Source: a virus (Duplodnaviria; Caudoviricetes). From it: a stretch of 64,000 nt of DNA. Of the stretch, positions 22,638-53,139 are shown in pieces. The stretch's first letter is position 1. Each line of letters opens with the position of its first letter. Both the position numbers and the translations under genes were made by a program. The notes beneath the pieces were generated by a model that was given only the letters and a program-made list of their open reading frames with translations, made no database searches and was not told the DNA's origin. The DNA lies in IMG/VR virus record IMGVR_UViG_3300020577_006545, positions 1 through 64,000 of that record. One strand, 5' to 3'.

Positions 22638-22682
22638 TTAAAGTGGTAAATCCTTTTCGTGTGGTTTTACATTCCATCCGTC
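22638..22682 (-). pseudogene. Ghost (displaced) C-terminus of the 23425-23580 zinc-ribbon gene
   Basis: DGWNVKPHEKDLPL* vs DGWEILPREFNKEL*: same length, 6/14 identical, both end CTT TAA. Confidence 0.7.
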
Positions 22683-22683
22683 T

Positions 22684-23385
22684 TTATAATTCATTTTGTT
22701 TTTTAAAGTCATTAAATCCTTTATAATCAAAAAATTTCCATTTTCTTTGGATAGTAGTTCTTGAGATTTTTAATATTTTTGATAAATCTTTTTCCATTAA
22801 ATTTGGGTTTTCTTTTAATATTTTTAATATCTCTTTTTCAGTAACATCCAAATATGTTGAAGAATAGTATTTCTTCCCAATTTTTTTAAGCCTTAAATCT
22901 TTTATATTTTTATATCCAAAACTCTTTATTCTTCTTCTAAGCGTATTGGTTCCTACATTTAAAGATTTTGCTAATTGCTCTTCGGTTAAATTTGAATTTT
23001 TTGAGAGTAATTTTGTGATGTCGTCTTCCAATATTTCTTTAATATTTTTTTTATTCATTTCAATTAAAAAATTTTTAGAAAATTGATATCCACGAGAATT
23101 ACTATATCTATTTTGATTTTTATTTTTACTTGTATTCATTCTTAAAAACGCAAAGGACATTCTGCGTTTATTTATACCGTTTGTAAATTTTGTTAATAAC
23201 CAATGTGACACATAATGCTCTCTTGCAGAGAGCGTCACCAAATTTTCTTTTTTATTTGTCCCACCTAGACTTTTAGGGATTATATGATGTTTTTCAAAAT
23301 ACTTATTTTGAAAAACATTTCTTTTAAGGGCATTATCTATAATTTTATTATACCAATTATAATATTTATTTTCAATAAAATACAT
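22684..23385 (-). CDS. HNH homing endonuclease with C-terminal HTH repeats
   Basis: EKHHIIPKSLGG..NLVTLSAREHYVSHWLL; two HTH-like segments. Confidence 0.88.
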   Translation of the reverse strand: MYFIENKYYNWYNKIIDNALKRNVFQNKYFEKHHIIPKSLGGTNKKENLVTLSAREHYVSHWLLTKFTNGINKRRMSFAFLRMNTSKNKNQNRYSNSRGYQFSKNFLIEMNKKNIKEILEDDITKLLSKNSNLTEEQLAKSLNVGTNTLRRRIKSFGYKNIKDLRLKKIGKKYYSSTYLDVTEKEILKILKENPNLMEKDLSKILKISRTTIQRKWKFFDYKGFNDFKKQNEL

Positions 23386-23424
23386 TGTAATAATATCTTG
23401 TGTAAAAATTAAAATTTTGCCTAG

Positions 23425-23580
23425 TTAAAGTTCTTTATTGAATTCTCTAGGCAAAATTTCCCACCCGTCATTGAACTTACAAAGAGGGCAATTTTCTTCT
23501 TGTTGCCACTCTTCGTAAGTGTAGTGATGGTCGCATTCTGGACAGACCAGAGTTTTTGTATCTCTAATCTTATCCGTCAT
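23425..23580 (-). CDS. Small zinc-ribbon protein coupled to Ro60 (not in ORF track)
   Basis: MTDKIRDTKTLVCPECDHHY..ENCPLCKFNDGW.. 51 aa; ATG 1 nt after the Ro60 stop. Confidence 0.7.
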   Translation of the reverse strand: MTDKIRDTKTLVCPECDHHYTYEEWQQEENCPLCKFNDGWEILPREFNKEL

Positions 23581-23581
23581 A

Positions 23582-25048
23582 CTAAATCTCTACTTGATGA
23601 ACTGCATTCAACAGTGCTTCTTTGTCTTGCTCAAGAAGTTTCATTACATCAAAAATCTTTTCACTGAAACCAGCAAGTGCGAACACTTTGTTTTCAGGAA
23701 ATTGAAGACTTCCATAACCTTGCAAGTCAAAACTATAGATGTAAGGGTCGCTTCCAACCGATTTCTTATAGTTCTGGAAAGATGCATCTGGTCTGTTACT
23801 TCTGTAACCACCTGTCACCCACGCTTGCATGTCTGACAAGACAATAATTCTGTCAAACTTCAATTTCTTTTCTGTAATCTTATCAAAGATACAGTTGAAG
23901 TTCGTTCCCCCACCGTGAAAACCAATTGCGTCTACAATTGATTTGAGGCTGTTGCCAGCGTCAATTCTTTTGATAGTTGCACTGTCGTCAAATGTTAGAA
24001 CAACAGAAGTATCTGGATTTCTCTTGTGAATAGCGGCGGCAAATAGAGAACCAATTTCACTTGGCTTTCCACTCATTGAACCTGAAACATCAAGAGCGAT
24101 TAAAGTTTCACCTTCAAGTTCTGGAACATTGTTCACAGAAATATCAAGTGCTTTACTCAATGCGTTCAAAACTTTTTTTGAAAGTTTCACATCTGCATCA
24201 TAAACTTTTTCAATCTCTTTGATTGCTGTCATAAATCTAAATGGTAGAATTAAGGATTTCTTAATTGCTACTTCATTAGTTAATTGACGGCAAGCCTCAT
24301 CAACCATTTCTGGTGCTTGAGTAATTATGTTTCTCAGGTTTCTAAGAAGAGCGAATATACCAAGTTTTTTAGTCTCAAGCAATTCTTTCCAAGCCTTACC
24401 TTTCAGTTCGGCTACTTCTTCTTCACCTTCTGCTTTACCAGCCTCACTCAACATTGCTTCCCAAGTATCAACATTCTTGAGTTTTCCAGACATTAAGTCT
24501 TTGAACACTTGAACATTTTTTTCACTTGGCTTTGGGTGAATGAGGTTGAAAGCATCAACCATTCCAAGTTCTTTTCCAGAACCAGCGTATTTAGCAAGTT
24601 GATAACCATCAAACTTGTTCAACGCTCTTGCCAAACCATCTTTCAATGAATTTGGAAGTGGCTTACCATACTTATTCATGTAATAAGCGAGAATTTCAGT
24701 AATATCGTCTGCACGATACACAACCTTTTCATAGAAAGGTCTTGTCCATTGCTCACCTTTTACTTGTTTTGCAATCTCACCTGCTACTGCGTGTGTGATT
24801 GAGCGCATACCAAACTGTGTTCTTGCAAACACTGCGGCCTTTGCCGCAAATTTCTTGTCTTTCAACTGTGAAATTAGTTGTGAAACTTTCTCAAGAGTTT
24901 CGTTAGAACCTCTATAAAATTGTTCACCTGCGAATGAAGTCAAGAGAATAGAAATTAATTCCAACTCTGCACTTTCTTGATGCGCGTCGCCACCAGCATA
25001 GTTTTGTATTGCTGGTGCCTTTTGTCTCGTTTTGTTAAACTTTGACAT
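23582..25048 (-). CDS. rsr: Ro60 / TROVE-domain RNA-binding protein with vWA domain
   Basis: NYAGG.A, RTQFGMRS, LPNSLKDGLARA..KFDGYQLAKY, ALLRNLRNI, LPFRFMTA, vWA DVSGSM MIDAS, IVLSDMQ. Confidence 0.95.
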   Translation of the reverse strand: MSKFNKTRQKAPAIQNYAGGDAHQESAELELISILLTSFAGEQFYRGSNETLEKVSQLISQLKDKKFAAKAAVFARTQFGMRSITHAVAGEIAKQVKGEQWTRPFYEKVVYRADDITEILAYYMNKYGKPLPNSLKDGLARALNKFDGYQLAKYAGSGKELGMVDAFNLIHPKPSEKNVQVFKDLMSGKLKNVDTWEAMLSEAGKAEGEEEVAELKGKAWKELLETKKLGIFALLRNLRNIITQAPEMVDEACRQLTNEVAIKKSLILPFRFMTAIKEIEKVYDADVKLSKKVLNALSKALDISVNNVPELEGETLIALDVSGSMSGKPSEIGSLFAAAIHKRNPDTSVVLTFDDSATIKRIDAGNSLKSIVDAIGFHGGGTNFNCIFDKITEKKLKFDRIIVLSDMQAWVTGGYRSNRPDASFQNYKKSVGSDPYIYSFDLQGYGSLQFPENKVFALAGFSEKIFDVMKLLEQDKEALLNAVHQVEI

Positions 25049-25095
25049 ATCTTACCTCCAGTTCCCTTTCGGGACAAATTAGAACAAATAATAAT

Positions 25096-25159
25096 GTGGA
25101 GAAAACCAAGAAGGGGGTTTTTCTATTAATGGTTGAAGTATCCCTTCTTTCACTACCAC
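25096..25159 (-). ncRNA. Y RNA-like copy 4 (minimal, 64 nt)
   Basis: GUGGUAGUGAAAGAAGGGAUACUUCAA...CCCCUUCUUGGUUUUCUCCAC; ends pair; shares motif with other copies. Confidence 0.75.
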
Positions 25160-25176
25160 TTTTATTAGTGCAAAAT

Positions 25177-25267
25177 ACGGAGAAAATCTATAAGAGAATT
25201 TTTTAAGGAGTTGAACCTTAAACCATTATGAGTGGTTTAACCGAAGTATCTCTTATATTACTGCCGT
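25177..25267 (-). ncRNA. Y RNA-like copy 3 (91 nt) with anticodon-arm + T-arm insert
   Basis: Same terminal stem; insert AAACCA-CUCAUAA-UGGUUU then AAGG-UUCAACU-CCUU. Confidence 0.75.
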
Positions 25268-25293
25268 TTTATTTAGTACATTCACAAACTAAT

Positions 25294-25420
25294 GCGGAGA
25301 AAATTGTAAAGGAAATTTTTTAGGCGCTCTACCAACTGAGCTACATACCTTTCGGTATGACAGGACTTGAACCTGCGACTTCCCGCTTAATAGGCGATGA
25401 AATCCTTTACTTACTACCGT
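25294..25420 (-). ncRNA. YrlA-like Y RNA copy 2 (127 nt) with permuted tRNA domain
   Basis: T arm GCAGG-UUCAAGU-CCUGU, acceptor closed by GAAA (CAUACC/GGUAUG), D arm GCUC-AGUUGGUA-GAGC, inside a Ro-type terminal stem. Confidence 0.85.
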
Positions 25421-25436
25421 CTTTAATTAGTGCATT

Positions 25437-25500
25437 GCGAAGAAAAACGAGAAGAGAGTTTTTTTTCACCAAATTGAAGTAACCCTTCTCTTACTGTCGC
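25437..25500 (-). ncRNA. Y RNA-like copy 1 (minimal, 64 nt)
   Basis: GCGACAGUAAGAGAAGGGUUACUUCAA...CUCUCUUCUCGUUUUUCUUCGC; begins 7 nt after the -10 box. Confidence 0.75.
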
Positions 25501-25507
25501 AATTATT

Positions 25508-27662: not shown

Positions 27663-28052
27663 ATGAAATTAATACAAAAAATTTTATATAAAAGAAAGAA
27701 ATGGTATGTTAAGAGAAATCGTTATAAAAGAAAACGCAGGATGTCGTTTAGAGAAATAAAAGTGTTGTGGGATAAAATCAATAATACGCAATATAATAAT
27801 GACGAATACTATTATGGACTTAGAAGTGTGTCGGATATTCTAACACAAATTCTTATTTCAAATCAAAAAAGTTTTCGTATATATTATTTTGATGATAATG
27901 ATGTTTTTGATATGATTAAGATTATAGAAACAGTTAGAAATAGAGATGTATTAAGAAAAACGCTTACTGGTGGTATGATTTGCTTTAAATTCATTAGTGA
28001 TTTAAGAATCACTAATAGTGAATTGTATTTGAAATACAGGCTTTTATTATAA
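27663..28052 (+). CDS. KY[KR]LL-domain family protein
   Basis: ends ELYLKYRLLL*. Confidence 0.65.
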   Translation: MKLIQKILYKRKKWYVKRNRYKRKRRMSFREIKVLWDKINNTQYNNDEYYYGLRSVSDILTQILISNQKSFRIYYFDDNDVFDMIKIIETVRNRDVLRKTLTGGMICFKFISDLRITNSELYLKYRLLL

Positions 28053-28429
28053 TGGTAAATCATAAAATTTTAAAAATAAAAGGAACGGAGAACTCATTTA
28101 TTCTTTCATCTGATGACACTAATACAATAAAAGTATTAATAAATAATGCTAATGATATTGCACTTGTTATTACAGATATGATGAAACGGTTTGAAGAAAG
28201 TAGATTTCAAACTGAAATTTTGGGGTTTAAGGCAGATGCAGATGGAGTAGTGAAGTTTACTATGGAGTTTACGATAGGAGAGACATTTGGAGAAATGACA
28301 GAAGACAAATTTCTTGAGTATTTGAATATCTATAGTGATGTTAAATATAAAAATTTTGTAAGAGCAATTAGAAATGCATCTGTGCAATTTGATAAAATGT
28401 GCGAGAAATATAAACTATTAATTGAGTGA
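28052..28429 (+). CDS. KY[KR]LL-domain family protein
   Basis: MTEDKFLEYL...MCEKYKLLIE*. Confidence 0.65.
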   Translation: MVNHKILKIKGTENSFILSSDDTNTIKVLINNANDIALVITDMMKRFEESRFQTEILGFKADADGVVKFTMEFTIGETFGEMTEDKFLEYLNIYSDVKYKNFVRAIRNASVQFDKMCEKYKLLIE

Positions 28430-28808
28430 AATTATGATTAAAGGAATGACTATAAGAACTTTTAACGAACTTGAAAAAGTTGTAAAATCATATTCTTCAT
28501 TTTATGGGGAAGATGTTGATTTTAGAGTTGAAGAAATAGGAATTGGACATATTGAATTAACTTTCATTTTTTATGAATTTAAGAGTGTTGAACTAATTAA
28601 AGAAGTGATGAAGGCAGTTAAACCTAACATAGTTATTAGTGTTAGATGTGATTGGCGTTTGTTTTTAGTTGCAACAGATTTTACAGAAGAAGATTTTATA
28701 CAATTTCTTACTGAAGAAAAACCAGATGAATGGGTGTTAAAATCAATTGCAGAAAATAATAAAAGAGTTGCTCTTTTGTGTGAAAAGTATAAACTATTAG
28801 TGGGGTAA
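28422..28808 (+). CDS. KY[KR]LL-domain family protein
   Basis: FTEEDFIQFL...LCEKYKLLVG*. Confidence 0.65.
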   Translation: MSEIMIKGMTIRTFNELEKVVKSYSSFYGEDVDFRVEEIGIGHIELTFIFYEFKSVELIKEVMKAVKPNIVISVRCDWRLFLVATDFTEEDFIQFLTEEKPDEWVLKSIAENNKRVALLCEKYKLLVG

Positions 28809-29819: not shown

Positions 29820-31134
29820 AAAATTATTGAGTTTGATTAACACAAACCAGTTTCTAACTGGTGGTTTTATATTAGGATTACTTGGAGGTATCGCCGTCTA
29901 TCTGAGAAGCGTTCCTGCAAACATATTATATTTTATAAGAAGGAGAATTGTGTTCTCTGTTGAAATTGAGAACCATTATGCTTCTTTCCATATGTTCTCA
30001 TACTGGCTTCAAAAACAGAAACCAGTATTTAAGAATAAGAATTTCTTCTTGAGAGAAGAACAGAGGATTTCAAGAAATGTTGAATTTGATGATGACGATG
30101 ACGATGAGTTTGGCAATACAACTGGAAAAGAAAAAAGAAAAAATAAAATTTTCTATGTTCCATCAAGTGGGCTTCATTTCTTTAAATACAACAAGAAACT
30201 TCTTATTATCTATTTCTATAGAAAAGAAGTGAATAACACGAACTCGTCTCCAGAATTTGAAAGCCCATTCCGTTATTCATATACAATTTATATGTTTGGT
30301 AAAAACGAAGAATGCCAAAAAACTATTGATATGATTGTTGAAGAGAGTGGGGCAGAACTATCTAAAAAGACAGATGGAAAAATCAAAATCCGCGCATCTG
30401 CTAATATTATAAGATATGGAGAAAATACATTTAACTGGAAACTTTCTGCATACAAACACCCAAGAACAAAAGAAACACTTGTTTTTGATGATGGTTTCTA
30501 TGAAGATATTGAAAGTGATATTGATAAATTTCTTCATAATAAACAATGGTATAAAGAGAAAGGAATTCCTTGGAGAAGAGGTTATCTCCTTCACGGTGTC
30601 CCAGGTGGTGGTAAGACTACTCTTATTGAAACTATTGCTGGTAGATTTAATTTCAACATCAATATTCTTGATTTAATGAATGATAAACTGACAGACCAAT
30701 ATTTAATTGAATTGTTTGCTTCTAATAAAGACAATTCAATTATTGTTGTTGAAGACATTGACACAATCTTTGAGAAAAGAACGCCGACAAGTGATAAAGT
30801 AAAAATAACTTTTAGCGGTTTGTTAAACGCTATTGATGGCATTGCGTCTAAAGATGGGCAGATTATTTTTATGACCACAAATAACATTGAAGTCCTTGAC
30901 GATGCACTCAAACGGTCAGGTCGCCTTGACAAACACATTGAATTTGATTATGCAAGTGAACAACAAAAGAGAAAGATGTTTCTTAAATTCTTTAAAGAGG
31001 ATGAGTTGAATGCTAATAAATTTATGGATATAATGAAAGGGGTAAATATATCTATGGCTAAATTACAGGAACATTTCGTTCTTTACTCTTATGATGTAAA
31101 TGCTATTTTTGAAAACATTGGAGAATTAAAATGA
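29806..31134 (+). CDS. BCS1-like AAA+ ATPase with N-terminal membrane anchor
   Basis: WYKEKGIPWRRGYLLHGVPGGGKT, IVVEDID, ITFSGLLNAIDG, MTTN..LDDALKRSGRLD. Confidence 0.88.
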   Translation: MKMFEKLLSLINTNQFLTGGFILGLLGGIAVYLRSVPANILYFIRRRIVFSVEIENHYASFHMFSYWLQKQKPVFKNKNFFLREEQRISRNVEFDDDDDDEFGNTTGKEKRKNKIFYVPSSGLHFFKYNKKLLIIYFYRKEVNNTNSSPEFESPFRYSYTIYMFGKNEECQKTIDMIVEESGAELSKKTDGKIKIRASANIIRYGENTFNWKLSAYKHPRTKETLVFDDGFYEDIESDIDKFLHNKQWYKEKGIPWRRGYLLHGVPGGGKTTLIETIAGRFNFNINILDLMNDKLTDQYLIELFASNKDNSIIVVEDIDTIFEKRTPTSDKVKITFSGLLNAIDGIASKDGQIIFMTTNNIEVLDDALKRSGRLDKHIEFDYASEQQKRKMFLKFFKEDELNANKFMDIMKGVNISMAKLQEHFVLYSYDVNAIFENIGELK

Positions 31135-32192
31135 TTAAACTATATAAAACAAATGTAAATGGATCAACCCAAATGTGGGAGGCTTTCTGTGAAGGAAATA
31201 CTCTCACTGTTAGATGGGGGCAAGTAGATGGTAAAATTCAAGAGAAGGTTACTGTTTATAAAGAAGGGAAAAATAAAAATCGTGCTAACGCCACGACGCC
31301 TGAGCAACAAGCTATCCTTGAAATGAATTCTACTGCTCAGAAAAAAAGAGATAAAGGATACAGTGAAAAGATTGGAGAGAGTTCAAGAAAAGTTCCTCTC
31401 CCAATGCTTGCTAAAGTTCTTGATGATAAAACTAAATTGACTAAAACAGTTTTTGTTCAACCTAAACTTGATGGCATTAGATGTCTTGCCGACCCAAAGA
31501 CAGGAGAACTATTTACAAGAAACGGTAAGAAACTTGTTGGGCTTGAGCATATTGAAGAAGCAGTAAAATCATTGAAATCAAGAGTATGGTTGGATGGTGA
31601 ACTTTACACTCATGGCATGACATTTCAAGAACTTGCGTCTGCCATCAAAAGAATTAAAACAGTATCAGAGAAAGCAAAAGATGTTAAGTATGTTTTATTT
31701 GATGCGATCAATGACGATAAATATCTTGATCGTCTTATGTATTTAAGAAGTATAGTAAATGGCGATTGTCTTGAAATAGTTGGTTGTAAAACAGTTAATG
31801 GAACAAGAGACGAAATAAACAAAGCTCATTCTGAATTTATTGAAGATGGATACGAAGGAACTATGGTTCGTCTTAACGATGAAACAGGATACGAAATAGC
31901 AAGAAGAAGTAAAACACTTCTAAAGAAAAAAGATTTTCTTGATGCTGAATTTACCGTTGTTGGAACAAAAGCGGAAGAGAACAGGGATGATATCCTTGGT
32001 TCTTTTATACTTGAAATGGAAGATGGTAAAACTTTTGATGGACGACCTGCTTGCACTATGGAAGAAAGAAAGAATATGTGGAAAAATAGAAAAGACTATA
32101 TAGGGCAGAGAATGACTGTGAAATTTCAGCAATTTTCAGATGATGGAATTCCCCGTTTCCCTGTGGTGATGGGTATTAGAGAAGTAGATTAG
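31131..32192 (+). CDS. ATP-dependent DNA ligase with N-terminal WGR-like domain
   Basis: QPKLDGIRC (motif I), LDGELY, EGTMVR, LLKKK, OB-fold end DGIPRFPV. Confidence 0.92.
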   Translation: MIKLYKTNVNGSTQMWEAFCEGNTLTVRWGQVDGKIQEKVTVYKEGKNKNRANATTPEQQAILEMNSTAQKKRDKGYSEKIGESSRKVPLPMLAKVLDDKTKLTKTVFVQPKLDGIRCLADPKTGELFTRNGKKLVGLEHIEEAVKSLKSRVWLDGELYTHGMTFQELASAIKRIKTVSEKAKDVKYVLFDAINDDKYLDRLMYLRSIVNGDCLEIVGCKTVNGTRDEINKAHSEFIEDGYEGTMVRLNDETGYEIARRSKTLLKKKDFLDAEFTVVGTKAEENRDDILGSFILEMEDGKTFDGRPACTMEERKNMWKNRKDYIGQRMTVKFQQFSDDGIPRFPVVMGIREVD

Positions 32193-33121
32193 TGAAAAAA
32201 TGACAGTATACTAAGATTTCCATATAAGATAATATCATGTATGTTTATGCACTTATGAATATAATAAACGGTAAATTATATGTTGGTAAGACTACTAATA
32301 TTGTAGCAAGGTTAAGAGTGCATAAACATAATGGTAAAAACAAGTCTAAACATAAATTAAATATTTATTTATATAACGCAATTCATAAATATGGGTGGGA
32401 AAATTTTAATTTTTGTATCCTTTCCGAATGTAAATCTGATAATGAATTATCTAAAAAAGAATTATTTTGGATTGATTATTTCTCATCATCCGATAGGAGT
32501 TTTGGATATAATATAGTCAAAAGCGATAGTGGGTTTTACAGACACTCTGCTGAAACAAAAAATAAAATAAGTAAAATAAACAAAGGTAGAAAACGTACAA
32601 AAGAACAATGTGATAAAAACAAATTATTGCAAAAAAATATATGGGATAATCTTTCTTCTTCAGAAAAAATGGAAAGGCAAATTAAGGCGTATGCTGGTAA
32701 AAAAATAAAAGTTAGAAAATTTTATATAAAAAAAATACATAGGATAAGACAATTTTTAAAACTTTTAAGTAAAGACGAAATCAAAATGATAGGCGGTGTT
32801 AAAAGAATAATTGCGTGGAGAAATGGAAATAAAAATCCATTTAGTAAAAATGAAGTATCACTTTTAATATCAAAATTAAAAAAAGGTAAACCATTGAAAA
32901 TAAATACAAAAGAAAAAATAAGAAAGAAAATACTTGGCTCAAAAAGACCAAAACAAATGGTTCAAGTCTTAGAGTACGATAAAAATATGAATGTTATTAA
33001 CAGTTATAGTTCTATAACAGAAGCAAGTCTTATGACTGGATGTTCCTCTTCAAAAATATGTGATGTGTGCAAAGGGAATAGAAAATCAACTAAGGGGAAA
33101 ATATTTGGCTATGGAGATGGA
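32142..33121 (+). mobile_element. Homing-endonuclease cassette: replacement ligase 3' end + promoter + GIY-YIG
   Basis: Ligase terminal 16 codons are duplicated either side of the GIY-YIG gene. Confidence 0.75.
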
Positions 33122-33175
33122 GATGGAAAACCACGCTTTCCAGTAGTTCTTGGTATAAGGGAGATTGACAAATGA
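32237..33175 (+). CDS. GIY-YIG homing endonuclease (NUMOD3/NUMOD1) fused in frame to a ghost ligase C-terminus
   Basis: YVYALMNIINGKLYVGKT..R..H..Y.AIHKYGWENF; RHSAETKNKISK; ends DGKPRFPVVLGIREIDK*. Confidence 0.9.
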   Translation: MYVYALMNIINGKLYVGKTTNIVARLRVHKHNGKNKSKHKLNIYLYNAIHKYGWENFNFCILSECKSDNELSKKELFWIDYFSSSDRSFGYNIVKSDSGFYRHSAETKNKISKINKGRKRTKEQCDKNKLLQKNIWDNLSSSEKMERQIKAYAGKKIKVRKFYIKKIHRIRQFLKLLSKDEIKMIGGVKRIIAWRNGNKNPFSKNEVSLLISKLKKGKPLKINTKEKIRKKILGSKRPKQMVQVLEYDKNMNVINSYSSITEASLMTGCSSSKICDVCKGNRKSTKGKIFGYGDGDGKPRFPVVLGIREIDK

Positions 33176-33276
33176 AAGAAAAGTTTGACAAAAATAGTGG
33201 CAATGGTATTATGTTCGTTGCCTTTGGTTTTGTATTATTAGTTTCAGCTTTGTTAATTTTGTTAAAAATGAATTAA
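33172..33276 (+). CDS. Small membrane peptide (not in ORF track)
   Basis: ATGA overlap with preceding stop; 34 aa with one TM. Confidence 0.5.
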   Translation: MKEKFDKNSGNGIMFVAFGFVLLVSALLILLKMN

Positions 33277-33286
33277 AGTTACCAGT

Positions 33287-33478
33287 GTGTTCTGGAACTT
33301 ATTTGAAGCAATACTCATAATATTCGCTGTTTGCTTTACATCTTATGAATTTGAGATGTTTCAACAGGCTTCAGTTAATATTATGGTATTGCTTTCTGTG
33401 TTTATATTCACATTTCCTGTAGTTCTGTTTTTTTATTTGGTTTATAGATTTTTGGTTAGAAAAATAAAAAGTTATTAA
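33287..33478 (+). CDS. Small membrane protein
   Basis: Two TM segments, GTG start. Confidence 0.55.
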   Translation: MFWNLFEAILIIFAVCFTSYEFEMFQQASVNIMVLLSVFIFTFPVVLFFYLVYRFLVRKIKSY

Positions 33479-33672: not shown

Positions 33673-33824
33673 AACCGTATCCAAAAACAAAATGGGAACA
33701 TATAGTGTTTACATTTACTGACCACGATAGTTTTATTGGGTTTGTAAAAATTGCTGTATTAACATTACCGTTATTAGGATCATTATATTTATTGTATTTT
33801 TTACTTGCTGTGTGGAAATTTTAA
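33669..33824 (+). CDS. Small membrane protein (not in ORF track)
   Basis: ATGA overlap; 51 aa with C-terminal TM. Confidence 0.5.
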   Translation: MKPYPKTKWEHIVFTFTDHDSFIGFVKIAVLTLPLLGSLYLLYFLLAVWKF

Positions 33825-33839
33825 TTAAAATTGAATAAT

Positions 33840-33855
33840 CTGGCACGGTTATTGC
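33840..33855 (+). promoter_or_regulatory. sigma54 (RpoN) -24/-12 promoter
   Basis: CTGGCACG-GTTA-TTGC matches YTGGCACG-N4-TTGC, intergenic. Confidence 0.65.
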
Positions 33856-33923
33856 CTTACCAATCTCAAAAAAAGTTAAAAAGTGACTTTACTTAGTTTA
33901 TAATACGAAAGATAATAAATAGT

Positions 33924-34118
33924 ATGGAAAAGACTTTAAAAGTTTATGGATTTTGCCGTGAAAAATGCTGTCCTGTTGTTGTGGATAATGGAACAGAAAT
34001 CGTTATTGGCGAAGAAAAAACTGAAAACGGGCTTGGTGGATTTACTGCTATGAGCAGACAACAATTTAAAGACTTTGTTGACGCCGCTAAAGCCGGTAAG
34101 TTTGATGAGGTATTGTAA
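33924..34118 (+). CDS. Small Cys-containing hypothetical protein
   Basis: 64 aa, FCREKCCPVV. Confidence 0.6.
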   Translation: MEKTLKVYGFCREKCCPVVVDNGTEIVIGEEKTENGLGGFTAMSRQQFKDFVDAAKAGKFDEVL

Positions 34119-34189
34119 TAGTACTACAACATCTTGAACTAGCGTTAATTTCAGCGTTTGCAACTTTTATTTTTGTGAGGGGTTTATGA
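34118..34189 (+). pseudogene. Ghost N-terminus of the 35004 membrane-protein gene
   Basis: (I)VLQHLELALISAFATFIFVRGL* aligns with LKSLEILVVTACATFIVVFSRL; start appears degraded TAATG>TAATA. Confidence 0.7.
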
Positions 34190-35007: not shown

Positions 35008-35282
35008 GTATTTTTGATTTAAAATCATTAGAGATATTAGTTGTAACAGCGTGTGCAACTTTCATAGTCGTGTTCAGCAGACTATTCAAGCCTTTAAGAG
35101 AAAGAATTGAGTTTTTTAGATGTTCGCTTTGTGTAGCATTTTGGGTAGGCATTATATTTGCCGCGACAGACCTGATCTACTATAAATCGCCCTTTGACAT
35201 ACTTTATGTATTCAAAATGGGCATCGCCTCATCAGTTCTTTCTTTTTTAACTTACAATTTACTACACAAACTGGAGCGTTAA
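35004..35282 (+). CDS. Membrane protein, holin candidate
   Basis: 3 hydrophobic segments, directly upstream of lytic transglycosylase. Confidence 0.55.
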   Translation: MSIFDLKSLEILVVTACATFIVVFSRLFKPLRERIEFFRCSLCVAFWVGIIFAATDLIYYKSPFDILYVFKMGIASSVLSFLTYNLLHKLER

Positions 35283-35337
35283 GAGCAGAATTAAATTCTG
35301 TACCCTTATCATATCTATTTGTTGGGAGGAAACGAAA

Positions 35338-41578: not shown

Positions 41579-42196
41579 ATGTTATACCGTGTAAACCTTG
41601 AATTTAAACCCACCAAAATTCAATTACTTTCTGGTGTAGTTAGTTTTAACACTAATTGGATTTTAGACAGACAAAAATTTATTGATTGGATTTATAAAGA
41701 ACCAATTCTGGTTGATCCGATGAAGCCTAATTCATCTTATCAACATGATATTAGGCAAAAAATGAGGGACGCTGGCAGTAACGGGTACAGCCACAGCGGA
41801 ATGTTTAAAGTAGATAGTATAGAAATCTCATCAAATATTGATGAGAAAGAACTGACTGCTGACAAATTGAAAAATTTACAAGGTGAGTATGTTGAAATAG
41901 CGTGTAAATTAAATTCTAAGTGTGAAAAGGTGTATGTATCGTTTTTAATTAATGTTGATTTATATGAAGGTATTCACCGTCTTTTTAGAAGTTTGTTTGT
42001 TATCCCTAATGATTGGCTGATTGAAGAAAAAGGTTTCCCTTTAAATGAATATTCTTTAAGAGAAGAATGTTATCAAGAACTTATTGCGAAAGAAGTTAAT
42101 TTGGTTGCGTATGGTTATGCAATCACACAAAAGGATACATTTTTGCAAATAATGAATCCATCGCTTTATGAAAAATATGCGTTATTGAGAAATTGA
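41579..42196 (+). CDS. KY[KR]LL-domain family protein (long N-terminus)
   Basis: ends MNPSLYEKYALLRN*. Confidence 0.65.
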   Translation: MLYRVNLEFKPTKIQLLSGVVSFNTNWILDRQKFIDWIYKEPILVDPMKPNSSYQHDIRQKMRDAGSNGYSHSGMFKVDSIEISSNIDEKELTADKLKNLQGEYVEIACKLNSKCEKVYVSFLINVDLYEGIHRLFRSLFVIPNDWLIEEKGFPLNEYSLREECYQELIAKEVNLVAYGYAITQKDTFLQIMNPSLYEKYALLRN

Positions 42197-42197
42197 T

Positions 42198-42431
42198 ATG
42201 AACAAATATGTAAAAGAAACTATAGAATTGATTAAATCACTTGAAGAAGAAGAGATACTTGAAATTCTTCTCTCTGAAAAGAGAGACAATCCTGTTGAAC
42301 TAATGCCATTTATCAACAGGGACAAAGTTACTTTAGGGATTATTGTTCATAAGTTTCGTCCAGAAGTTGTAGAGAAATATAAGTTACTAATAGATGAGAA
42401 AGAAGATGAAGAACAATACTACGACGATTGA
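42198..42431 (+). CDS. KY[KR]LL-domain family protein
   Basis: SLEEEEIL...FRPEVVEKYKLLID. Confidence 0.65.
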   Translation: MNKYVKETIELIKSLEEEEILEILLSEKRDNPVELMPFINRDKVTLGIIVHKFRPEVVEKYKLLIDEKEDEEQYYDD

Positions 42432-42675
42432 TGAATTTAATACTACTCCATCAAGATTGCTTAGAAATTGTCTTGAGAATTTTAATAGTGGGTCGTATCT
42501 TATTTATAGATTTGGTAGAGAATTTTTGTCTTTAAGCGAAGATGAGAAAATAGAATTTATTATTTTATTAAATCAAACAGAAGATATTAAAAACACATAT
42601 TTATCAAGTCTAACAGCATTGATTATGGCAAGCGATATGGAGTTTTATGAGAAATACAAAGTTATCATTAACTGA
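42394..42675 (+). CDS. KY[KR]LL-domain family protein
   Basis: LSEDEKIEFI...EFYEKYKVIIN*. Confidence 0.6.
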   Translation: MRKKMKNNTTTIDEFNTTPSRLLRNCLENFNSGSYLIYRFGREFLSLSEDEKIEFIILLNQTEDIKNTYLSSLTALIMASDMEFYEKYKVIIN

Positions 42676-42994
42676 TATTAAAAGATACGGATTTAAGTAT
42701 TTTCTACTTGAGTCGGATCATCCTGAGAATAAGGAAGGAAGTTTTGCGTGGAGTAAACTAAAATTTGTTTATGCAAACAAAGGGAAGGTGTATGTGGAAA
42801 ATCAAATAGATTTATTAGATTTTGAAAAAATGCTTAAAGAAGCAACAGAAGAAGAATTGATAGAGTTCGTCACTACTGCGAAACTTGTTTTTATTAATCT
42901 AAAAGCAAGAGAGATGTATGGGGAAAGAGGTGAGAAATATTTTGCCGCTGTGATACCAAAGTTCTATAAAAAATATAAGTTACTATTTGCATGA
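42647..42994 (+). CDS. KY[KR]LL-domain family protein
   Basis: ATEEELIEFV...PKFYKKYKLLFA*. Confidence 0.65.
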   Translation: MRNTKLSLTDIKRYGFKYFLLESDHPENKEGSFAWSKLKFVYANKGKVYVENQIDLLDFEKMLKEATEEELIEFVTTAKLVFINLKAREMYGERGEKYFAAVIPKFYKKYKLLFA

Positions 42995-46312: not shown

Positions 46313-46356
46313 ATAAAAAATGCAATGCATTTTGAAATGCAATATAAGATAACAAT

Positions 46357-46518
46357 ATGGAGACTAAATTTTCAAAAAAACAAAAAAAAGAAAGACAAGT
46401 ATCTTTCAGGATACAAGAAGAATTATATGAATGGTTGGAGGCTATTTCTAAAAAAGAAAAGAAAACTAAAACTCAATATATAATTGATTTACTCGCAAAA
46501 GAATGGAGTAAGAAATGA
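46357..46518 (+). CDS. Ribbon-helix-helix DNA-binding protein (not in ORF track)
   Basis: RQVSFRIQEELYEWLEAISKKEKKTKTQYIIDLL; ATGA overlap with HNH start. Confidence 0.75.
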   Translation: METKFSKKQKKERQVSFRIQEELYEWLEAISKKEKKTKTQYIIDLLAKEWSKK

Positions 46519-47189
46519 ATACTTGTAAATATTGTAATCTTATTGGTGAAGAGAGTTTGTTTAGAAGTAAAAATATTTGTAAAGAATGTAATAATAAAAA
46601 TGCTGTAATTTTAAGCAGGCGGTACAGAAAAGATAATAAAGAAATAATATCTAACCGTGCTAAAATATATTATGAACTAAACAAAGAAAAGAAAAGACAA
46701 AGTAAAAAGAAATATTATGAAAATAATAAAGAAAGGTTAAAAGAAAAACAAAGGGTTTATAACAAAACACATAAGGAACAAATATCAAAAAGTAAAAAAT
46801 TATATACCCCCAAAAGAAACGAACTAAATAAAATTAAATACAAAACAGATAATCTGTTTAGAATAAACAGATTAATTAAAAGAGGTTTTTTAAAAGGTAT
46901 AAAAACATATTCTAAAACTGGTAAAACGAAAGCGTTAAAGGAATATGGAATTAACATAAGAGCAATAGTAGAGAAATTAGGAGAACCACCAAAAGATGGT
47001 AAAGAATGGCATATAGACCACGTATTGCCTGTGTCTGCTTTTGACTTAACGAAGCCAGAACATATAAAAGCTTGCTGGCATCCAGACAATTTAAGATGGT
47101 TAGAGGCAAGTGAGAATATTAAGAAGAGTAATAAATATGATAAAGAAGAATTTGAGAAGTATTTAAATGAACATATAGAGGTGAAGTAA
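46515..47189 (+). CDS. HNH homing endonuclease
   Basis: N-terminal CxxC; WHIDHVLPVSAF..WHPDNLRWL...NIKKSNK. Confidence 0.88.
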   Translation: MNTCKYCNLIGEESLFRSKNICKECNNKNAVILSRRYRKDNKEIISNRAKIYYELNKEKKRQSKKKYYENNKERLKEKQRVYNKTHKEQISKSKKLYTPKRNELNKIKYKTDNLFRINRLIKRGFLKGIKTYSKTGKTKALKEYGINIRAIVEKLGEPPKDGKEWHIDHVLPVSAFDLTKPEHIKACWHPDNLRWLEASENIKKSNKYDKEEFEKYLNEHIEVK

Positions 47190-47969
47190 ATGGCTTGGAA
47201 AGCGGTATATAGTGTATACAATGAAGCAAAGTTTTTAGAAAAATCAATTATGAATATAATTGATGAGATGGATAAAATCATTATAGTTGAGGGGTGTTGG
47301 TTAAATGGGGAGAAAATTACTGGCAGTTTAAGAAGCACCGATGGTACTATAGAGATTTTAGAAAGACTAAAAAAAACATACCCAAATAAATTTGAAATTT
47401 GTTATGAAAATAAATTAAATGAACAACGACAACGAGATAACTATTTAGAAAAACTTGAAGATGGTGATAATGTTCTATGGCTTGATGGAGATGAAATTCT
47501 TATTAAGAAAGAATTAAAAGAAGCAAAGACGTATGTTGAACATATGTTCAAGATAGGGCATCAAATGTTATTTGCACATTACATAAATGTGTTTGATGCA
47601 GGTGCAGTCAAAGACACTCATTTACGTGGCTTGTTTTTTAAATTTAGAAGCGATATAAGGTATCTTGATAATGAAAGGGCTAAAGGAAGTCCTGGTGAAG
47701 TTTATCTATTTGAAAATTATGGTAAAGGAAATCTCTATAACAAATCAATGCCAGTAATTGATTGGGATATAGTTAAGGTTTTTCATTTTAAATATTGTAA
47801 AGACCTTGATAAACTTGTTGAAAGAAGATTGATGTATGAGAGTGTTTGGAGGCAGTTACCAGATGAAAAATTAGAAGAAACAAGGATTTCATTAGAAGAG
47901 GAATATAAAACAAAATATAAATCAGGGTTAAAATTTGAAAATGTATATGAAGGAGAACTACCTATATGA
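47190..47969 (+). CDS. GT2-like glycosyltransferase
   Basis: VYNE..FLEKSI, IIIVEG, WLDGDE, VFHF. Confidence 0.8.
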   Translation: MAWKAVYSVYNEAKFLEKSIMNIIDEMDKIIIVEGCWLNGEKITGSLRSTDGTIEILERLKKTYPNKFEICYENKLNEQRQRDNYLEKLEDGDNVLWLDGDEILIKKELKEAKTYVEHMFKIGHQMLFAHYINVFDAGAVKDTHLRGLFFKFRSDIRYLDNERAKGSPGEVYLFENYGKGNLYNKSMPVIDWDIVKVFHFKYCKDLDKLVERRLMYESVWRQLPDEKLEETRISLEEEYKTKYKSGLKFENVYEGELPI

Positions 47970-48292
47970 TGATTACAAGTATAAATAGAGCAACTGTTGA
48001 AATGAGATTGAATCCAGATGAATACGAAGCTTTAATGCAATTGTTTAGGAACTCATACAATGGGGCTATTGGCGGTATGGATTACAATAGTATAAAGTTT
48101 GCAAATTTTGTGACTAATACATTAACTGCTGATATTATTGAAAGTAATAAATGTAATGAAGATTTTCTATTATCACTTTTAAATGGTTCAACATCAGTAA
48201 TTGTTGATGGCAATACTGTTGATTTTAAATATTATGCAAAATCTCGTCTACCTGAATTTTCAGAGAAATACAAGTTATTATTGAATGAATAA
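47966..48292 (+). CDS. KY[KR]LL-domain family protein
   Basis: CNEDFLL...RLPEFSEKYKLLLNE*. Confidence 0.65.
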   Translation: MMITSINRATVEMRLNPDEYEALMQLFRNSYNGAIGGMDYNSIKFANFVTNTLTADIIESNKCNEDFLLSLLNGSTSVIVDGNTVDFKYYAKSRLPEFSEKYKLLLNE

Positions 48293-48575
48293 TTTTAGTT
48301 TTACAACTTCCATATCGTCATCAGTAATTGATGGTATGGATGAGGACAGATTGTTAGAAGAAGTTTTATTAGCGATTAAAAATGACAATTTAAATCATTT
48401 TGCAGTTACAGTTGCCACATTAGTTGAATACGATAGTAATAACGATATTTATGAAAGGCAATCTGTTTTAGAACATCACGATGAAAGTTTTGACATATCT
48501 TATTATGCCTTATCAGAGTATCTACAAAAATTTAGAAAAGAATTTTATGAAAAGTATAAATTATTATTGGAGTGA
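48285..48575 (+). CDS. KY[KR]LL-domain family protein
   Basis: MDEDRLL...RKEFYEKYKLLLE*. Confidence 0.65.
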   Translation: MNNFSFTTSISSSVIDGMDEDRLLEEVLLAIKNDNLNHFAVTVATLVEYDSNNDIYERQSVLEHHDESFDISYYALSEYLQKFRKEFYEKYKLLLE

Positions 48576-48841
48576 CTATGTGGTTTAATGAAACGAAAAA
48601 ACCAAAAGATATTTTGTCAAGTGTAAAAATAAGAGAGATTACAGAGGATAACTTTCTTTTATGGATAATGACGATCAATAATCATCCAGAATTAGATATT
48701 AGAAAATATCAAGTTCAAATTGAAGATGTTGACGAAGTAATTGAACAAAAATTTTCATTATTTCAATTGGTACCATTAGCAGAATATTTAAAAGAAAGCC
48801 GTCCTGATTTTTATGAAAAGTATAGACTATTATTGGAGTGA
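48572..48841 (+). CDS. KY[KR]LL-domain family protein
   Basis: ITEDNFL...RPDFYEKYRLLLE*. Confidence 0.65.
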   Translation: MTMWFNETKKPKDILSSVKIREITEDNFLLWIMTINNHPELDIRKYQVQIEDVDEVIEQKFSLFQLVPLAEYLKESRPDFYEKYRLLLE

Positions 48842-49916: not shown

Positions 49917-49920
49917 TACT

Positions 49921-50526
49921 ATGTCACAATTTGAATTAAAAAAATGGCAAATGATAGATGGGGACAACACTCTGTCATACAATTTTATTGATCTAAAAGA
50001 TACTTCCGTTGTAGTTGACACAAGTGGAGTATCTGGAAATTGGGGATATAATATGCATAAGAAATATGGTTGTACAGTTTATATATTTGAACCAGCTAGA
50101 CGATATTTTAATGTAATTAAAAAGAAGTTTTTAGAAAATGATAAAATCATTCCTGTTAAGGCAATGTTGTCTAATAGGAGTGAAAAAGGGATAATGTATT
50201 TAAAAGAAGAAGCGTCATCATCACATCTGGCAGTAAGTAATGTGCAAGAGGAAATAGATTTTCTTGACATATCAGAGTTTAGACGAAAGGAACAAATTGG
50301 TATTATTGATGTGTTAAGACTTAATGTAAATGGTGAGGAATATAATATTTTTGAAAGAATGTTTGAAAAAATGATACATCATAAAGTAAAATACATTATG
50401 GTTCAGTTCGCACCTTATGTTGAAGGTGCGATTGAAAAGAGAGATAGTATCAGAAAAAGATTAGCGAAAACTCACAAAGAAATTTACAATTATGAATTTA
50501 TTTGGGAGTTGTGGCGGTTAAAATAG
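49921..50526 (+). CDS. FkbM-family methyltransferase (degenerate motif I)
   Basis: YIFEP, IDVLRLNVNGEEY..F, YIMVQF. Confidence 0.75.
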   Translation: MSQFELKKWQMIDGDNTLSYNFIDLKDTSVVVDTSGVSGNWGYNMHKKYGCTVYIFEPARRYFNVIKKKFLENDKIIPVKAMLSNRSEKGIMYLKEEASSSHLAVSNVQEEIDFLDISEFRRKEQIGIIDVLRLNVNGEEYNIFERMFEKMIHHKVKYIMVQFAPYVEGAIEKRDSIRKRLAKTHKEIYNYEFIWELWRLK

Positions 50527-51290
50527 TTTAGGTACATATAGTCTTCTGGAACAAGTAATTTATTCGCTCTTTCAAAATTATCATTTATAGCATTTATTTT
50601 TGATGCGTATAGTTCTGGTGTCAGCATATCTAAACTGAAATTATCATCTAGCATTATTATTCCATCCATATTAAAATACTTTCCAATGTCTGGAGTGCCA
50701 AAATAAATTGGGATAGTTCCTGTGGCAAAACAATCTGTGATTTTTTCTGTTATATTATAGTCGTAAACAGAATTCTCCATAGCAAAAGAAAACATATAGT
50801 CCACCAATCCATCTTCTTTCCTATTTATTGGGTTTGATCCATGACCATACATATCCACTAGAGAAGAAAATTTCTTTATCCATTTTTGTCTTTCATATCC
50901 TTTATTAGACGCAATCATAGAAACTAATTTTGTTTTAGGATATACTTTTCTTTCAACCACCCAAGGTACTGCGTTTATAATAAATTTCATTTTGTCACCT
51001 AATTGTAACAATCGTTTATCGTGTGTGAAGATTGCTTCATAGTGTGGTGAAATTCTATCATAGTATTTTGTAAATTCTGCTATTACTTGAGGGATAACAA
51101 TGTCAGCTTCAAGTATCCAACCGTATTTTATTTTTGGCAAATTAAAATTAAAAATTCCGTGGTCAATATGAACAGAAACTTCTGCACTTAAATCTTTTAC
51201 CCATTCTACATATTGTGGATTTACATACTTAGCAGAACCAAGTTGATGCTGAAACCCGCCAGCAATCATATTCAATTTCATTTTATTCAC
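50490..51290 (-). CDS. GT10 (alpha-1,3-fucosyltransferase-like) glycosyltransferase
   Basis: DYMFSFAMENS..ITEKITDCFATGTIPIYFG. Confidence 0.85.
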   Translation of the reverse strand: MNKMKLNMIAGGFQHQLGSAKYVNPQYVEWVKDLSAEVSVHIDHGIFNFNLPKIKYGWILEADIVIPQVIAEFTKYYDRISPHYEAIFTHDKRLLQLGDKMKFIINAVPWVVERKVYPKTKLVSMIASNKGYERQKWIKKFSSLVDMYGHGSNPINRKEDGLVDYMFSFAMENSVYDYNITEKITDCFATGTIPIYFGTPDIGKYFNMDGIIMLDDNFSLDMLTPELYASKINAINDNFERANKLLVPEDYMYLNYFNRHNSQINS

Positions 51291-51308
51291 GAAATAATTC
51301 TATGTCAT

Positions 51309-51337
51309 TTGACAGAAAAAATCAAGTAAAGTACAAT
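51309..51337 (+). promoter_or_regulatory. sigma70 promoter
   Basis: TTGACA-17-TACAAT. Confidence 0.8.
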
Positions 51338-51348
51338 TAAAAGACCTG

Positions 51349-52104
51349 ATGAACAAAAAGAATATAATTGCCAATATAGTAACACAAGCATACTTAAAGA
51401 AAGAAGGTCACATACCAAGTTCATTATCAATTTTAGATATTCTATTTATCCTATACGATGAAATCCTTGATATACAAAGCATTAAAGATGAAGCAGACGA
51501 CAGGGACAGATTTGTCCTTAGTAAAGGACACGCATCACTTGGGTTGTATGCAGTTCTTAATGAATTTGGCCTTTTGAACGAGCCACTTGAAAATTTTGCC
51601 GACCCAACATCACTGCTTGGGGGACATCCGACAGATAAATTAAAATATGTTGAAGCATCAACAGGCTCTCTTGGACACGGATTACCTATGGCTGTTGGCA
51701 TGGCATTAGGATATAAAATTCGTGGCTTTAAAAGTAAGGTCTATTGTTTGATAGGTGATGGCGAAGCAAATGAAGGGACTGTTTGGGAAAGTGCATTACT
51801 TGCGGCTCATCATAGATTAGATAATCTATATTGCATTATGGATCATAATCGCTCAGGTGACAGAGCTTTAATAATAGATGACGTTGTTGAAAAGTTTAAA
51901 GCCTTTAACTGGCTTTCTGTTCCAATTGATGGGCACGACGATGTTCAAATAAGAACTGCTTTGAAAATCAAAACACAATCACCACATTTTATTTGTGCTC
52001 ATACAATCAAAGGGAAAGGAATTCCAATGATGGAAAACAATCCAGAATGGCACCACAAGATGCCTTCTAAAGAAGAGTTAGATTTTATTTTAAAAAATTT
52101 ATAA
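51349..52104 (+). CDS. Transketolase, N-terminal (ThDP-binding) subunit
   Basis: GHIPSSLS, DRFVLSKGHA, STGSLGHGL, GDGEANEG..WE..DHN, TIKGKG. Confidence 0.92.
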   Translation: MNKKNIIANIVTQAYLKKEGHIPSSLSILDILFILYDEILDIQSIKDEADDRDRFVLSKGHASLGLYAVLNEFGLLNEPLENFADPTSLLGGHPTDKLKYVEASTGSLGHGLPMAVGMALGYKIRGFKSKVYCLIGDGEANEGTVWESALLAAHHRLDNLYCIMDHNRSGDRALIIDDVVEKFKAFNWLSVPIDGHDDVQIRTALKIKTQSPHFICAHTIKGKGIPMMENNPEWHHKMPSKEELDFILKNL

Positions 52105-52147
52105 AAATTAATCAAAAATTACAATGCCAATATAAGTTAATGATGGA

Positions 52148-52306
52148 ATGAGTAAAACAGATAAAACTGAAATGATTAGAATAAATGTAGATATAGAAAA
52201 AAACAAACATAAGAGATTGAAATTGATATTGGTACAAAATGATAAATCAATTAAAGATTTTCTGCATGAAGCAGTAGAAAAATATTTATTAGAAAATGAT
52301 GGCTGA
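52148..52306 (+). CDS. Ribbon-helix-helix (ParG-like) DNA-binding protein (not in ORF track)
   Basis: MIRINVDIEKNKHKRLKLILVQNDKSIKDFLHEAVEKYL; overlaps HNH start. Confidence 0.75.
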   Translation: MSKTDKTEMIRINVDIEKNKHKRLKLILVQNDKSIKDFLHEAVEKYLLENDG

Positions 52307-53111
52307 GTATAATACAACTATGAAAGAGTGTAGTAAATGTACGATTAAAAAAACATTTAATAATTTTTATAATGATAAATCACATAATGACGGTTATATG
52401 TCTGTCTGTAAAGAATGTATTAAAAAAAATAAAAACAAAAGAACGAAAGAAAGAACTGCGATAAGATTGACGCTACAACCTGTAGTGCAGAAAATTTGTT
52501 CTACTTGCAAAATTAAAAAGCAAATTCTCCATTTTTATAAACTGGCATCTACAGTGGACGGGTATAACACCGAATGCAAACAGTGTTCTAATAACAGAAG
52601 TAAAAAAATAATTATAAGGTTGGCAAATAATGGACCATCTATTATTAGGTTTGAAAAAATATGTTATAAATGTAAAGTTAAAAAACATATTAGCTCTTTC
52701 ACAAAAAATAGATGCAGACCAGATGGATACCACACTAAATGTAAACAATGCAAATATTCAGAACAAAAAAAAGATTTAAGAGAAAATTTACGAAATGCTG
52801 TGTACAAAGCAATAACTCAATATTCAGAGCGTGGTAAAGTTAAAACAATACTTGAATATGGTATAGATATAAAAAAAATTATTGATTATATTGGCGAAAG
52901 ACCGTCAAAAGATCATCATCTTGACCATATAATACCTATTAGTGCTTTTAATTATAATTTAGATTGGCAAATCGCAGCTTCTTGGCATCCACAAAATTTA
53001 CAATGGTTGTTAGCTGAACAAAATCTTAGTAAGCATAACAAATATGAGCAGGAAGAACTTTCATTATATTTAGAAAATTTTAAAATTCCCAGCAAACGAA
53101 GAAGAACTTAA
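52296..53111 (+). CDS. HNH homing endonuclease with tandem zinc-finger repeats
   Basis: Three C..C...K...F......DG....CK.C repeats; HHLDHIIPISAF..WHPQNLQWL...NLSKHNK. Confidence 0.88.
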   Translation: MMAEYNTTMKECSKCTIKKTFNNFYNDKSHNDGYMSVCKECIKKNKNKRTKERTAIRLTLQPVVQKICSTCKIKKQILHFYKLASTVDGYNTECKQCSNNRSKKIIIRLANNGPSIIRFEKICYKCKVKKHISSFTKNRCRPDGYHTKCKQCKYSEQKKDLRENLRNAVYKAITQYSERGKVKTILEYGIDIKKIIDYIGERPSKDHHLDHIIPISAFNYNLDWQIAASWHPQNLQWLLAEQNLSKHNKYEQEELSLYLENFKIPSKRRRT

Positions 53112-53139
53112 CAAAATACTTGGAGAACTAAATGATTAA
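53083..53139 (+). pseudogene. Ghost C-terminus of transketolase N subunit
   Basis: +1 frame KFPANEEELNKILGELND* vs KMPSKEELDFILKNL* at 52057-52104. Confidence 0.65.

Follow-up and report, generated by a model that had tools for sequence, protein, structure and literature searches.

Positions 1-64,000 of the 87-kb record IMGVR_UViG_3300020577_006545 in IMG/VR (CheckV completeness estimate 36%), hereafter the window, contain four free-standing endonuclease genes, each lying between two diverged copies of one terminus of a neighboring gene. A preliminary description of the window had proposed this arrangement, and we recovered all four instances at the positions it gave. In our favored reading, which we hold with considerable confidence, the genes encode free-standing homing endonucleases that probably settled at the boundaries of packed, overlapping genes and brought with them a replacement end for the host gene. 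Each cassette would consist of a replacement copy of the host-gene terminus plus the nuclease gene, accompanied in two cases by a small ribbon-helix-helix (RHH) gene. The replacement end would complete the host gene, and the native end, pushed to the far side of the nuclease gene, would persist there as a ghost terminus.

The window has a G+C content of about 30%, and its genes are tightly packed and frequently overlap. They include genes for a Ro60/TROVE protein, a BCS1-like AAA ATPase, an ATP-dependent DNA ligase, many glycosyltransferases and a split transketolase. The relatives compared here are metagenomic contigs (labeled L005, L010, L016, L041 and so on) representing two related jumbo-phage lineages, that of the window and a sister lineage. 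Megablast of the region against a phage collection returned no close cultured phage, and tblastn with the GIY-YIG and ligase proteins found only distant relatives among cultured phages (<42% identity). Scans of IMG/VR with the ligase, TROVE, transglycosylase and GIY-YIG proteins gave distant loci or none. Each terminus was tested against 1000 dinucleotide-shuffled versions of the sequence surrounding the far end of its nuclease gene, which gave p values of 0/1000 for the ligase and for a membrane protein, 0.001 for a zinc ribbon and 0.005 for the transketolase. In a scan of all neighboring gene triplets in the window the nuclease cases ranked high, and comparable scores came only from tandem paralogues.

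Nucleases of these families are usually borne by introns or inteins, and the cassettes could in principle be such elements, removed at the RNA or protein level. We regard this as scarcely credible. Rfam searches of positions 21-55 kb found no group I or group II intron even at E≤1, in line with the preliminary description, which had seen no intron-like sequence. Moreover, the stop codons of the host genes precede the nuclease open reading frames (ORFs), which are separate and out of frame with the host gene.

At the transketolase site, the gene for the N-terminal subunit (51349-52104 (+); Pfam Transketolase_N, E=3.9e-36) ends in a proximal terminus at 52060-52104. It is followed by an RHH gene (52148-52306 (+); Pfam ParG, E=5.7e-6) that overlaps the start of a gene for an endonuclease VII-like, HNH-type nuclease with repeated zinc-finger modules (52296-53111 (+); PHROG 1035, E=2.9e-32; no Pfam match). 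The ghost terminus occupies 53083-53139 (+), contains a GGAG ribosome-binding site and overlaps the ATG of the downstream methyltransferase gene (53132) by 8 nucleotides (nt). The last nine codons of the nuclease gene read the ghost in a different frame. Since the best-scoring segment in the shuffle test is not in the ghost frame, this case stands on its relatives and not on similarity.

Those relatives are informative. The transketolase of contig L016 (P0006), 92% identical to that of the window, ends in exactly the sequence of the window's ghost, and a 77% identical homolog (P0007) ends in nearly the same way; both proteins have 254 residues versus 251 for the window transketolase. In contigs L010 to L016 the transketolase gene directly overlaps the methyltransferase gene, with neither an RHH nor a nuclease gene between them. 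Window positions 51195-52076 and 53083-53450 map to a single uninterrupted segment of L016, on which the two alignments overlap by 20 nt. The ghost is identical to L016 at 60 of 60 positions, the L016 flanks differ by 4-9%, and the proximal copy departs from the L016 end by numerous substitutions and an indel. At this site the native terminus is the distal copy. Identity to L016 falls to 76% in the 42 nt before the junction, from 95-100% over the preceding 240 nt, and on this profile the imported tract in the transketolase gene probably begins near 52035.

The ligase site has the same organization. The ATP-dependent DNA ligase gene (31131-32192 (+); Pfam DNA_ligase_A_M and OB_2) ends in a diverged proximal terminus at 32130-32192. 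The GIY-YIG endonuclease gene that follows (32237-33175 (+); Pfam GIY-YIG, E=2.7e-13; PHROG 314, E=5e-31) has the features of its family, namely the catalytic domain and a NUMOD-like DNA-binding module. The ghost ligase end forms the last ~24 codons of this ORF (33104-33175), in frame, and overlaps a small membrane ORF (33172-33276 (+)) by an ATGA at 33172. The proximal and ghost ends share a 13-residue core in which 11 residues are identical and only one codon is the same. By comparison, the ghost has nine of the 13 core codons in common with the empty allele, by which we mean the nuclease-free form of the locus.

That empty allele is present in L005, whose ligase is 82% identical to the window's; it lacks the GIY-YIG gene and runs straight into a ghost-type end, to which the small membrane ORF is directly coupled by ATGA. 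A ligase of 361 residues with the same empty structure occurs in L005 and in 24 sister-lineage contigs. Window positions 31587-32128 align to L005 2-546 and positions 33115-33423 to L005 568-877, and because both flanks align around it, window ~32129-33114, comprising the proximal end and the body of the GIY-YIG gene, is an insertion. Here too the nuclease-free relatives identify the distal copy as the native terminus.

Alignment of L010 to the window revealed further sites with the roles reversed, at which nuclease genes are absent from the window and the window carries the empty allele. At the first, the window has the native epimerase 3' end (55725-55757 (+)). The L010 epimerase has a diverged 10-codon proximal terminus of the same length as the native end, followed by an endonuclease VII-like ORF. 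The last codons of that ORF are the native-type epimerase end, in frame, and the next gene starts inside this ghost. An 8-nt string, AAATACAT, common to the native tail of the nuclease family and to the epimerase end, falls exactly at the junction. A second L010 site is a minimal 3' case in which only the last three codons are replaced.

The third reciprocal site has the mirror-image form, at the 5' end of a gene. The window carries an intact fucosyltransferase gene (50490-51290) with its native 5' end at 51246-51290 (-). L010 has a DUF4379 zinc-finger gene inserted after codon 15, with the ghost upstream and a diverged new 5' end downstream. The ghost matches the intact window gene at 13 of 13 residues, and the replacement 5' end is written in different codons, which verifies, at this gene, the 5' form that the preliminary description had put forward for the LAGLIDADG case. 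At both the epimerase and the fucosyltransferase the distal copy is again native. The preliminary description had predicted that empty alleles would join the host gene directly to the ghost terminus. This held at every site that could be tested, including the ligase and the transketolase, and the three reciprocal sites are empty in the window and occupied in the sister lineage.

The two remaining cassettes in the window have the same architecture with shorter similarities. A zinc-ribbon gene (23425-23580 (-); 51 residues; Pfam zinc-finger match) directly follows the Ro60/TROVE gene, and its proximal terminus comprises the last ~17 codons (23425-23478). The adjacent HNH endonuclease gene (22684-23385 (-)) encodes C-terminal helix-turn-helix domains and matches both Pfam HNH (E=1.2e-5; 25.8 bits against a cut-off of 21.4) and PHROG 655 'homing endonuclease' (E=1.8e-32). 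The candidate ghost is an 18-codon ORF (22638-22694 (-)) whose ATG overlaps the HNH stop. The two terminus copies have equal codon counts before the stop, and in stop-aligned register 28 of 51 bases match and 6 of 17 residues are identical. An intrinsic terminator hairpin (~22602-22632) follows the ghost, and no coupled gene lies there. The preliminary description had each orphan terminus coupling translation to the next gene; this applies to the ligase and transketolase ghosts but not to the zinc-ribbon ghost.

A search with the zinc-ribbon protein matched only the protein itself, and the TROVE genes of relatives (43-52% identity) are not followed by a zinc-ribbon gene. In the sister lineage, the slot downstream of TROVE holds a gene for a 340-residue protein with DUF7487 repeats and an MTES_1575/DUF559-type nuclease end (L050 327-1349 (-)), followed by an 81-residue zinc protein with faint similarity to the window zinc ribbon (E=0.007-0.02). 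We considered this slot as an empty allele and rejected it, as it contains a different nuclease and a small zinc protein. The slot after TROVE appears to be a hot spot for nuclease genes.

At the fourth site, a LAGLIDADG endonuclease gene (34186-35007 (+); Pfam E=1.9e-10; PHROG 4645, E=1.4e-66) encodes two LAGLIDADG_3 domains in one chain (34402-34527 and 34711-34944). Its stop codon is overlapped by the ATG of a 92-residue membrane protein gene (35004-35282 (+); termed holin-like in the preliminary description), of which the first ~26 codons (35004-35081) form the proximal 5' end. The probable ghost 5' end, at 34109-34189 (+), lacks a canonical start codon and overlaps the LAGLIDADG ATG with its TGA. 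Its local alignment score is 43, with 9 of 26 residues identical. With this site, the three nuclease families of the preliminary description are present as GIY-YIG, HNH-type and LAGLIDADG, with the qualification that the nuclease at 52296-53111 matches the endonuclease VII PHROG and not Pfam HNH.

We found 36 representatives of the membrane-protein family and examined the N-termini of nine. Two allelic states retain the ghost: one with the full nuclease gene, seen in the window and in L036 and in part in L026 and L037-L040, and one with only its first 84 nt, in L041 (Logan SRR20718482). L041, aligned to window 33797-35615, lacks window positions 34270-35003 and keeps both the ghost and the proximal 5' end; it was considered as an empty allele and rejected as a deletion derivative that still holds the ghost. 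L041 is 99% identical to the window on the left side of the deletion and 91.5% identical on the right side, which marks the LAGLIDADG site as a recombination boundary. P0161, considered as an allele with a different N-terminus, was also rejected, the difference being a start-codon call on an occupied contig.

Decay of this kind bears on a further alternative, in which the ancestral loci were occupied and the nuclease-free alleles arose later, by deletion between the terminus copies. Nuclease genes do decay, as the 84-nt remnant in L041 and an internally deleted LAGLIDADG gene in the sister lineage both illustrate. Yet the empty alleles are ghost-type across the whole duplicated stretch, with no hybrid junction, and repeats this divergent would not support efficient homologous deletion. 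The transketolase end of the ghost type also fits the wider family pattern better than the proximal end does, and occupancy is patchy and reciprocal between the two lineages. We judge secondary loss to be very improbable as the source of the empty alleles.

Several observations weigh against our reading, beginning with the zinc-ribbon and membrane-protein sites. We found no empty allele for the zinc ribbon, and all contigs with the identical zinc-ribbon protein also carry the HNH gene. The third allelic state at the membrane-protein site, found in the sister lineage, has the internally deleted LAGLIDADG gene at the same position and no ghost, the ghost having either been deleted or never existed; none of the three states found is an empty allele. 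A hidden Markov model of the membrane-protein family matched the ghost only at E=0.22, which is not significant. For these two sites one could argue that there is no ghost and that the similarity is due to chance or low complexity, given the shortness of the matches, the hydrophobic character of the membrane segment and the sister-lineage LAGLIDADG without a ghost segment. Against this, shuffling gave p ~0.001 for the zinc ribbon and <0.001 for the membrane protein, both segments lie exactly at the nuclease boundary in stop-aligned or start-adjacent register, and the same architecture is verified at five other sites in two lineages. Chance similarity is therefore unlikely in our estimation, and from the shuffle statistics, the exact position and the pattern at the verified sites we take the zinc-ribbon ghost to be probably real, and the membrane-protein ghost with equal assurance.

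Other contrary points concern the cassettes as a class. The DUF4379 insert of L010 has no recognizable nuclease domain. A counter-example within the window spans 46313-47189 (+), where an RHH gene (46357-46518) and an endonuclease VII-like gene (46515-47189; PHROG 1035 'endonuclease VII', E=8e-9; repeated zinc-finger modules and no Pfam match) form a clean intergenic insertion. Window 46303 corresponds to L010 5662 and window 47189 to L010 5673, with no duplicated terminus. Because this nuclease of the same family inserted plainly between genes, a replacement end is not obligatory. Two other nuclease genes of the same genome, beyond the window at ~72.4-73.1 kb and 80.4-81.1 kb, have no clear duplicated termini.

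A last contrary point is that we found no donor for the proximal ends. We inspected the ends of the first 54 of the 120 closest transketolase proteins listed; two of the 54 are longer fused proteins that end differently, and the proximal-type end occurs in none of the remaining 52. The missing donor would fit a different origin, local duplication at insertion (by staggered-break fill-in or template switching) followed by recoding of the proximal copy in place, driven by selection to escape the nuclease or to prevent deletion between repeats. The preliminary description had likewise suggested that the element repairs the host gene with its own synonymously recoded end. In favor of recoding, the ligase core differences are mostly synonymous, with 10 of the 11 identical residues in different codons, and diverged repeats would stabilize the cassette. 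However, it is implausible that one copy diverged so far so quickly when the transketolase ghost is still identical to L016 at every position and its flanks already differ. The raised synonymous divergence also reaches ~45 nt into the gene body, as a co-converted donor tract predicts, and fungal mobile ORF elements with the same pattern have been interpreted as carrying foreign ends (PMC3630166). We consider recoding in place improbable. Of the earlier suggestion, completion of the host gene by a replacement end stands, and import of a diverged donor end fits better than recoding. The intact ghost, the diverged proximal copy and the 42-nt tract of lowered identity suggest that the proximal ends most likely come from foreign alleles and arrived together with the nuclease.

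Under the homing-endonuclease reading, the nuclease would cleave the empty allele where gene body and terminus meet, or close to that point. Repair from an occupied genome would use the gene body as one homology arm and the ghost plus the downstream gene as the other, so that the replacement end and the nuclease gene would be copied together. The proximal end would then be the gene end of a diverged donor phage, imported by co-conversion. The far junction may first have been made by joining at a short microhomology inside the 3' tail of the nuclease gene, as the 8-nt string at the L010 epimerase site suggests. The ghost has almost the same sequence as the empty allele, which precludes a recognition site contained entirely in the ghost; the site is expected across the body/terminus junction or upstream of that junction.

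The proposed route also relates to the packing of these genes. Because neighbors overlap or are coupled by 4, 8 or 14 nt, a plain insertion at such a boundary would have to duplicate the overlap or break a gene. A ghost would avoid this by carrying the next gene's ribosome-binding site, start codon or stop-start overlap; alternatively, a ghost provides the start region or tail of the nuclease ORF itself. The ghosts do hold the ribosome-binding site and start of the next gene. The nuclease ORFs are missing the tail typical of their family and continue into the ghost instead, in or out of frame.

The preliminary description could match these cassettes to no described system, a claim that does not survive comparison with fungal mobile ORF elements and with phage T4. 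In the mitochondrial genome of Glomus sp., each of the genes atp6, atp9, cox2 and nad3 has an inserted C-terminus and a LAGLIDADG or GIY-YIG ORF, with the native C-terminus lying further downstream; the native C-termini have 91-98% nucleotide identity to a relative and the inserted ones 64-81% (PMC3630166). Among the further mobile ORF elements cited in that paper are those of Allomyces macrogynus atp6, Rhizopus atp9 and Mortierella cox2 (PMC3630166). The fungal and phage sites are alike in having a free-standing nuclease ORF near a conserved gene end, a diverged terminus that completes the gene and a distal native copy that matches nuclease-free relatives, and in affecting several genes per genome. 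In the fungal elements, too, the nuclease ORF is sometimes in phase with the flanking coding sequence. The phage cassettes differ in their host, in including HNH-type nucleases and in having 5'-end mirror cases, and their ghosts, at 10-25 codons, are shorter than the fungal ones and extend over the region where translation of the next gene starts. For the fungal elements both expression and cleavage have been demonstrated; for the phage cassettes cleavage is a prediction.

In T4 intronless homing, free-standing nuclease genes of the Seg and Mob groups lie between or overlap other genes, differ in presence from one relative to the next and spread with co-conversion of their flanks (PMC2988022). 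The review of these systems describes the classical cases as intergenic, with immunity arising from polymorphisms of the target gene, and does not mention duplicated termini (PMC2988022). We applied a flank test to the first 50 kb of T4 (NC_000866), where segF, segA, mobB and mobA have no duplicated termini and only mobC does. The mobC gene (NC_000866 42906-43538; read as L053) opens with a copy of the first seven nrdG codons, in which 19 of 21 bases agree. In T-even relatives without mobC, nrdD and nrdG lie side by side, and the match of these relatives to T4 is exact through the last of the seven codons. The first ~217 nt of T4 nrdG have no megablast match in mobC-free relatives, which suggests an imported tract there as well.

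The T4 MobA element is reported to replace 55-75 nt of the topoisomerase gene with a carried homologous region that includes the nick site (bioRxiv 10.1101/2022.08.31.505936). Like the window cassettes, it is a phage HNH cassette that carries its own copy of the host segment it cuts and preserves host function. Unlike them, it has deleted the native segment and leaves no ghost, and its host gene is split, with added extensions and translational bypass, whereas the window host genes are whole. Target-regenerating integrative elements, such as prophages and islands in the 3' ends of tRNA genes, also carry a copy of a gene end that keeps the gene intact. Those elements use site-specific recombinases and identical core sequences; the phage cassettes have no integrase, and their terminus copies are strongly diverged. 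Our literature search found no phage paper describing terminus duplications that flank nucleases, and one may still exist. The design is already described in fungal mitochondria and is visible in T4; the window and its relatives add a new type of host, a rich set of sites and a verified 5' variant.

Terminus replacement may be a general route, at both 3' and 5' ends, by which free-standing homing endonucleases of every family enter overlapping or coupled phage gene junctions, with the far junction made by microhomology and the nuclease ORF capturing the host start region or stop. We put the odds of such generality at about even. If it holds, phages should contain many unrecognized chimeric gene ends and ghost termini, T4 mobC/nrdG among them, and ghost termini would mark past homing events and the exact cut sites. 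On this account, selfish nucleases can occupy compact, overlapping operons without breaking either neighbor. At least seven occupied or empty sites in two lineages, with three nuclease families and both gene ends, amount to a natural experiment in which the ghost boundaries give precise predictions of nuclease target sites. For annotation and phylogeny, host genes beside such nucleases would be chimeric with a foreign end, the nuclease ORFs would have host-derived tails or heads, and short ghost ORFs would not be genes. The comparison also links an observation from fungal mitochondria to phages, where we found it only for MobA and, unremarked, at T4 mobC.

We also recorded several further features. 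Upstream of the Ro60/TROVE gene (23582-25048), positions 25304-25409 (-) match Y RNA-like (YrlA) RNA at 44.8 bits (E=5.4e-7), where the Rfam threshold is 69, and the flank test detected a short tandem similarity at 25042-25323. A nuclease-like gene (21034-21822 (-)) matches PHROG 559 (HNH endonuclease; E=1.9e-66) and has weak DUF723, CapR and DUF4379 matches. It lies directly upstream of a 448-residue ORF (19665-21011 (-)), and the annotation of the homologous L017 product gives PHP and DNA polymerase III alpha domains; the locus may be a fragmented polymerase gene.

A family of small proteins with a C-terminal motif of the type F-Y-E-K-Y-K-L-L, often in tandem, is encoded at 28052-28808, 41579-42994 and 47966-48841 of the window, and at ~71.9-72.3 kb and 79.3-80.4 kb of G000. 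A similar tail (E-F-x-K-Y-L/I) occurs on the endonuclease VII-like nucleases, some of which adjoin members of this family. Tandem paralogous genes at 55744-56616 and 56617-57477 share 47% identity across 292 residues. At L050 17667-19424, in the sister lineage, a GIY-YIG/NUMOD3 gene (228 residues) and a NUMOD3 gene (280 residues) follow a glycosyltransferase equivalent to that at window 38212-39345, after which the window has small ORFs instead.

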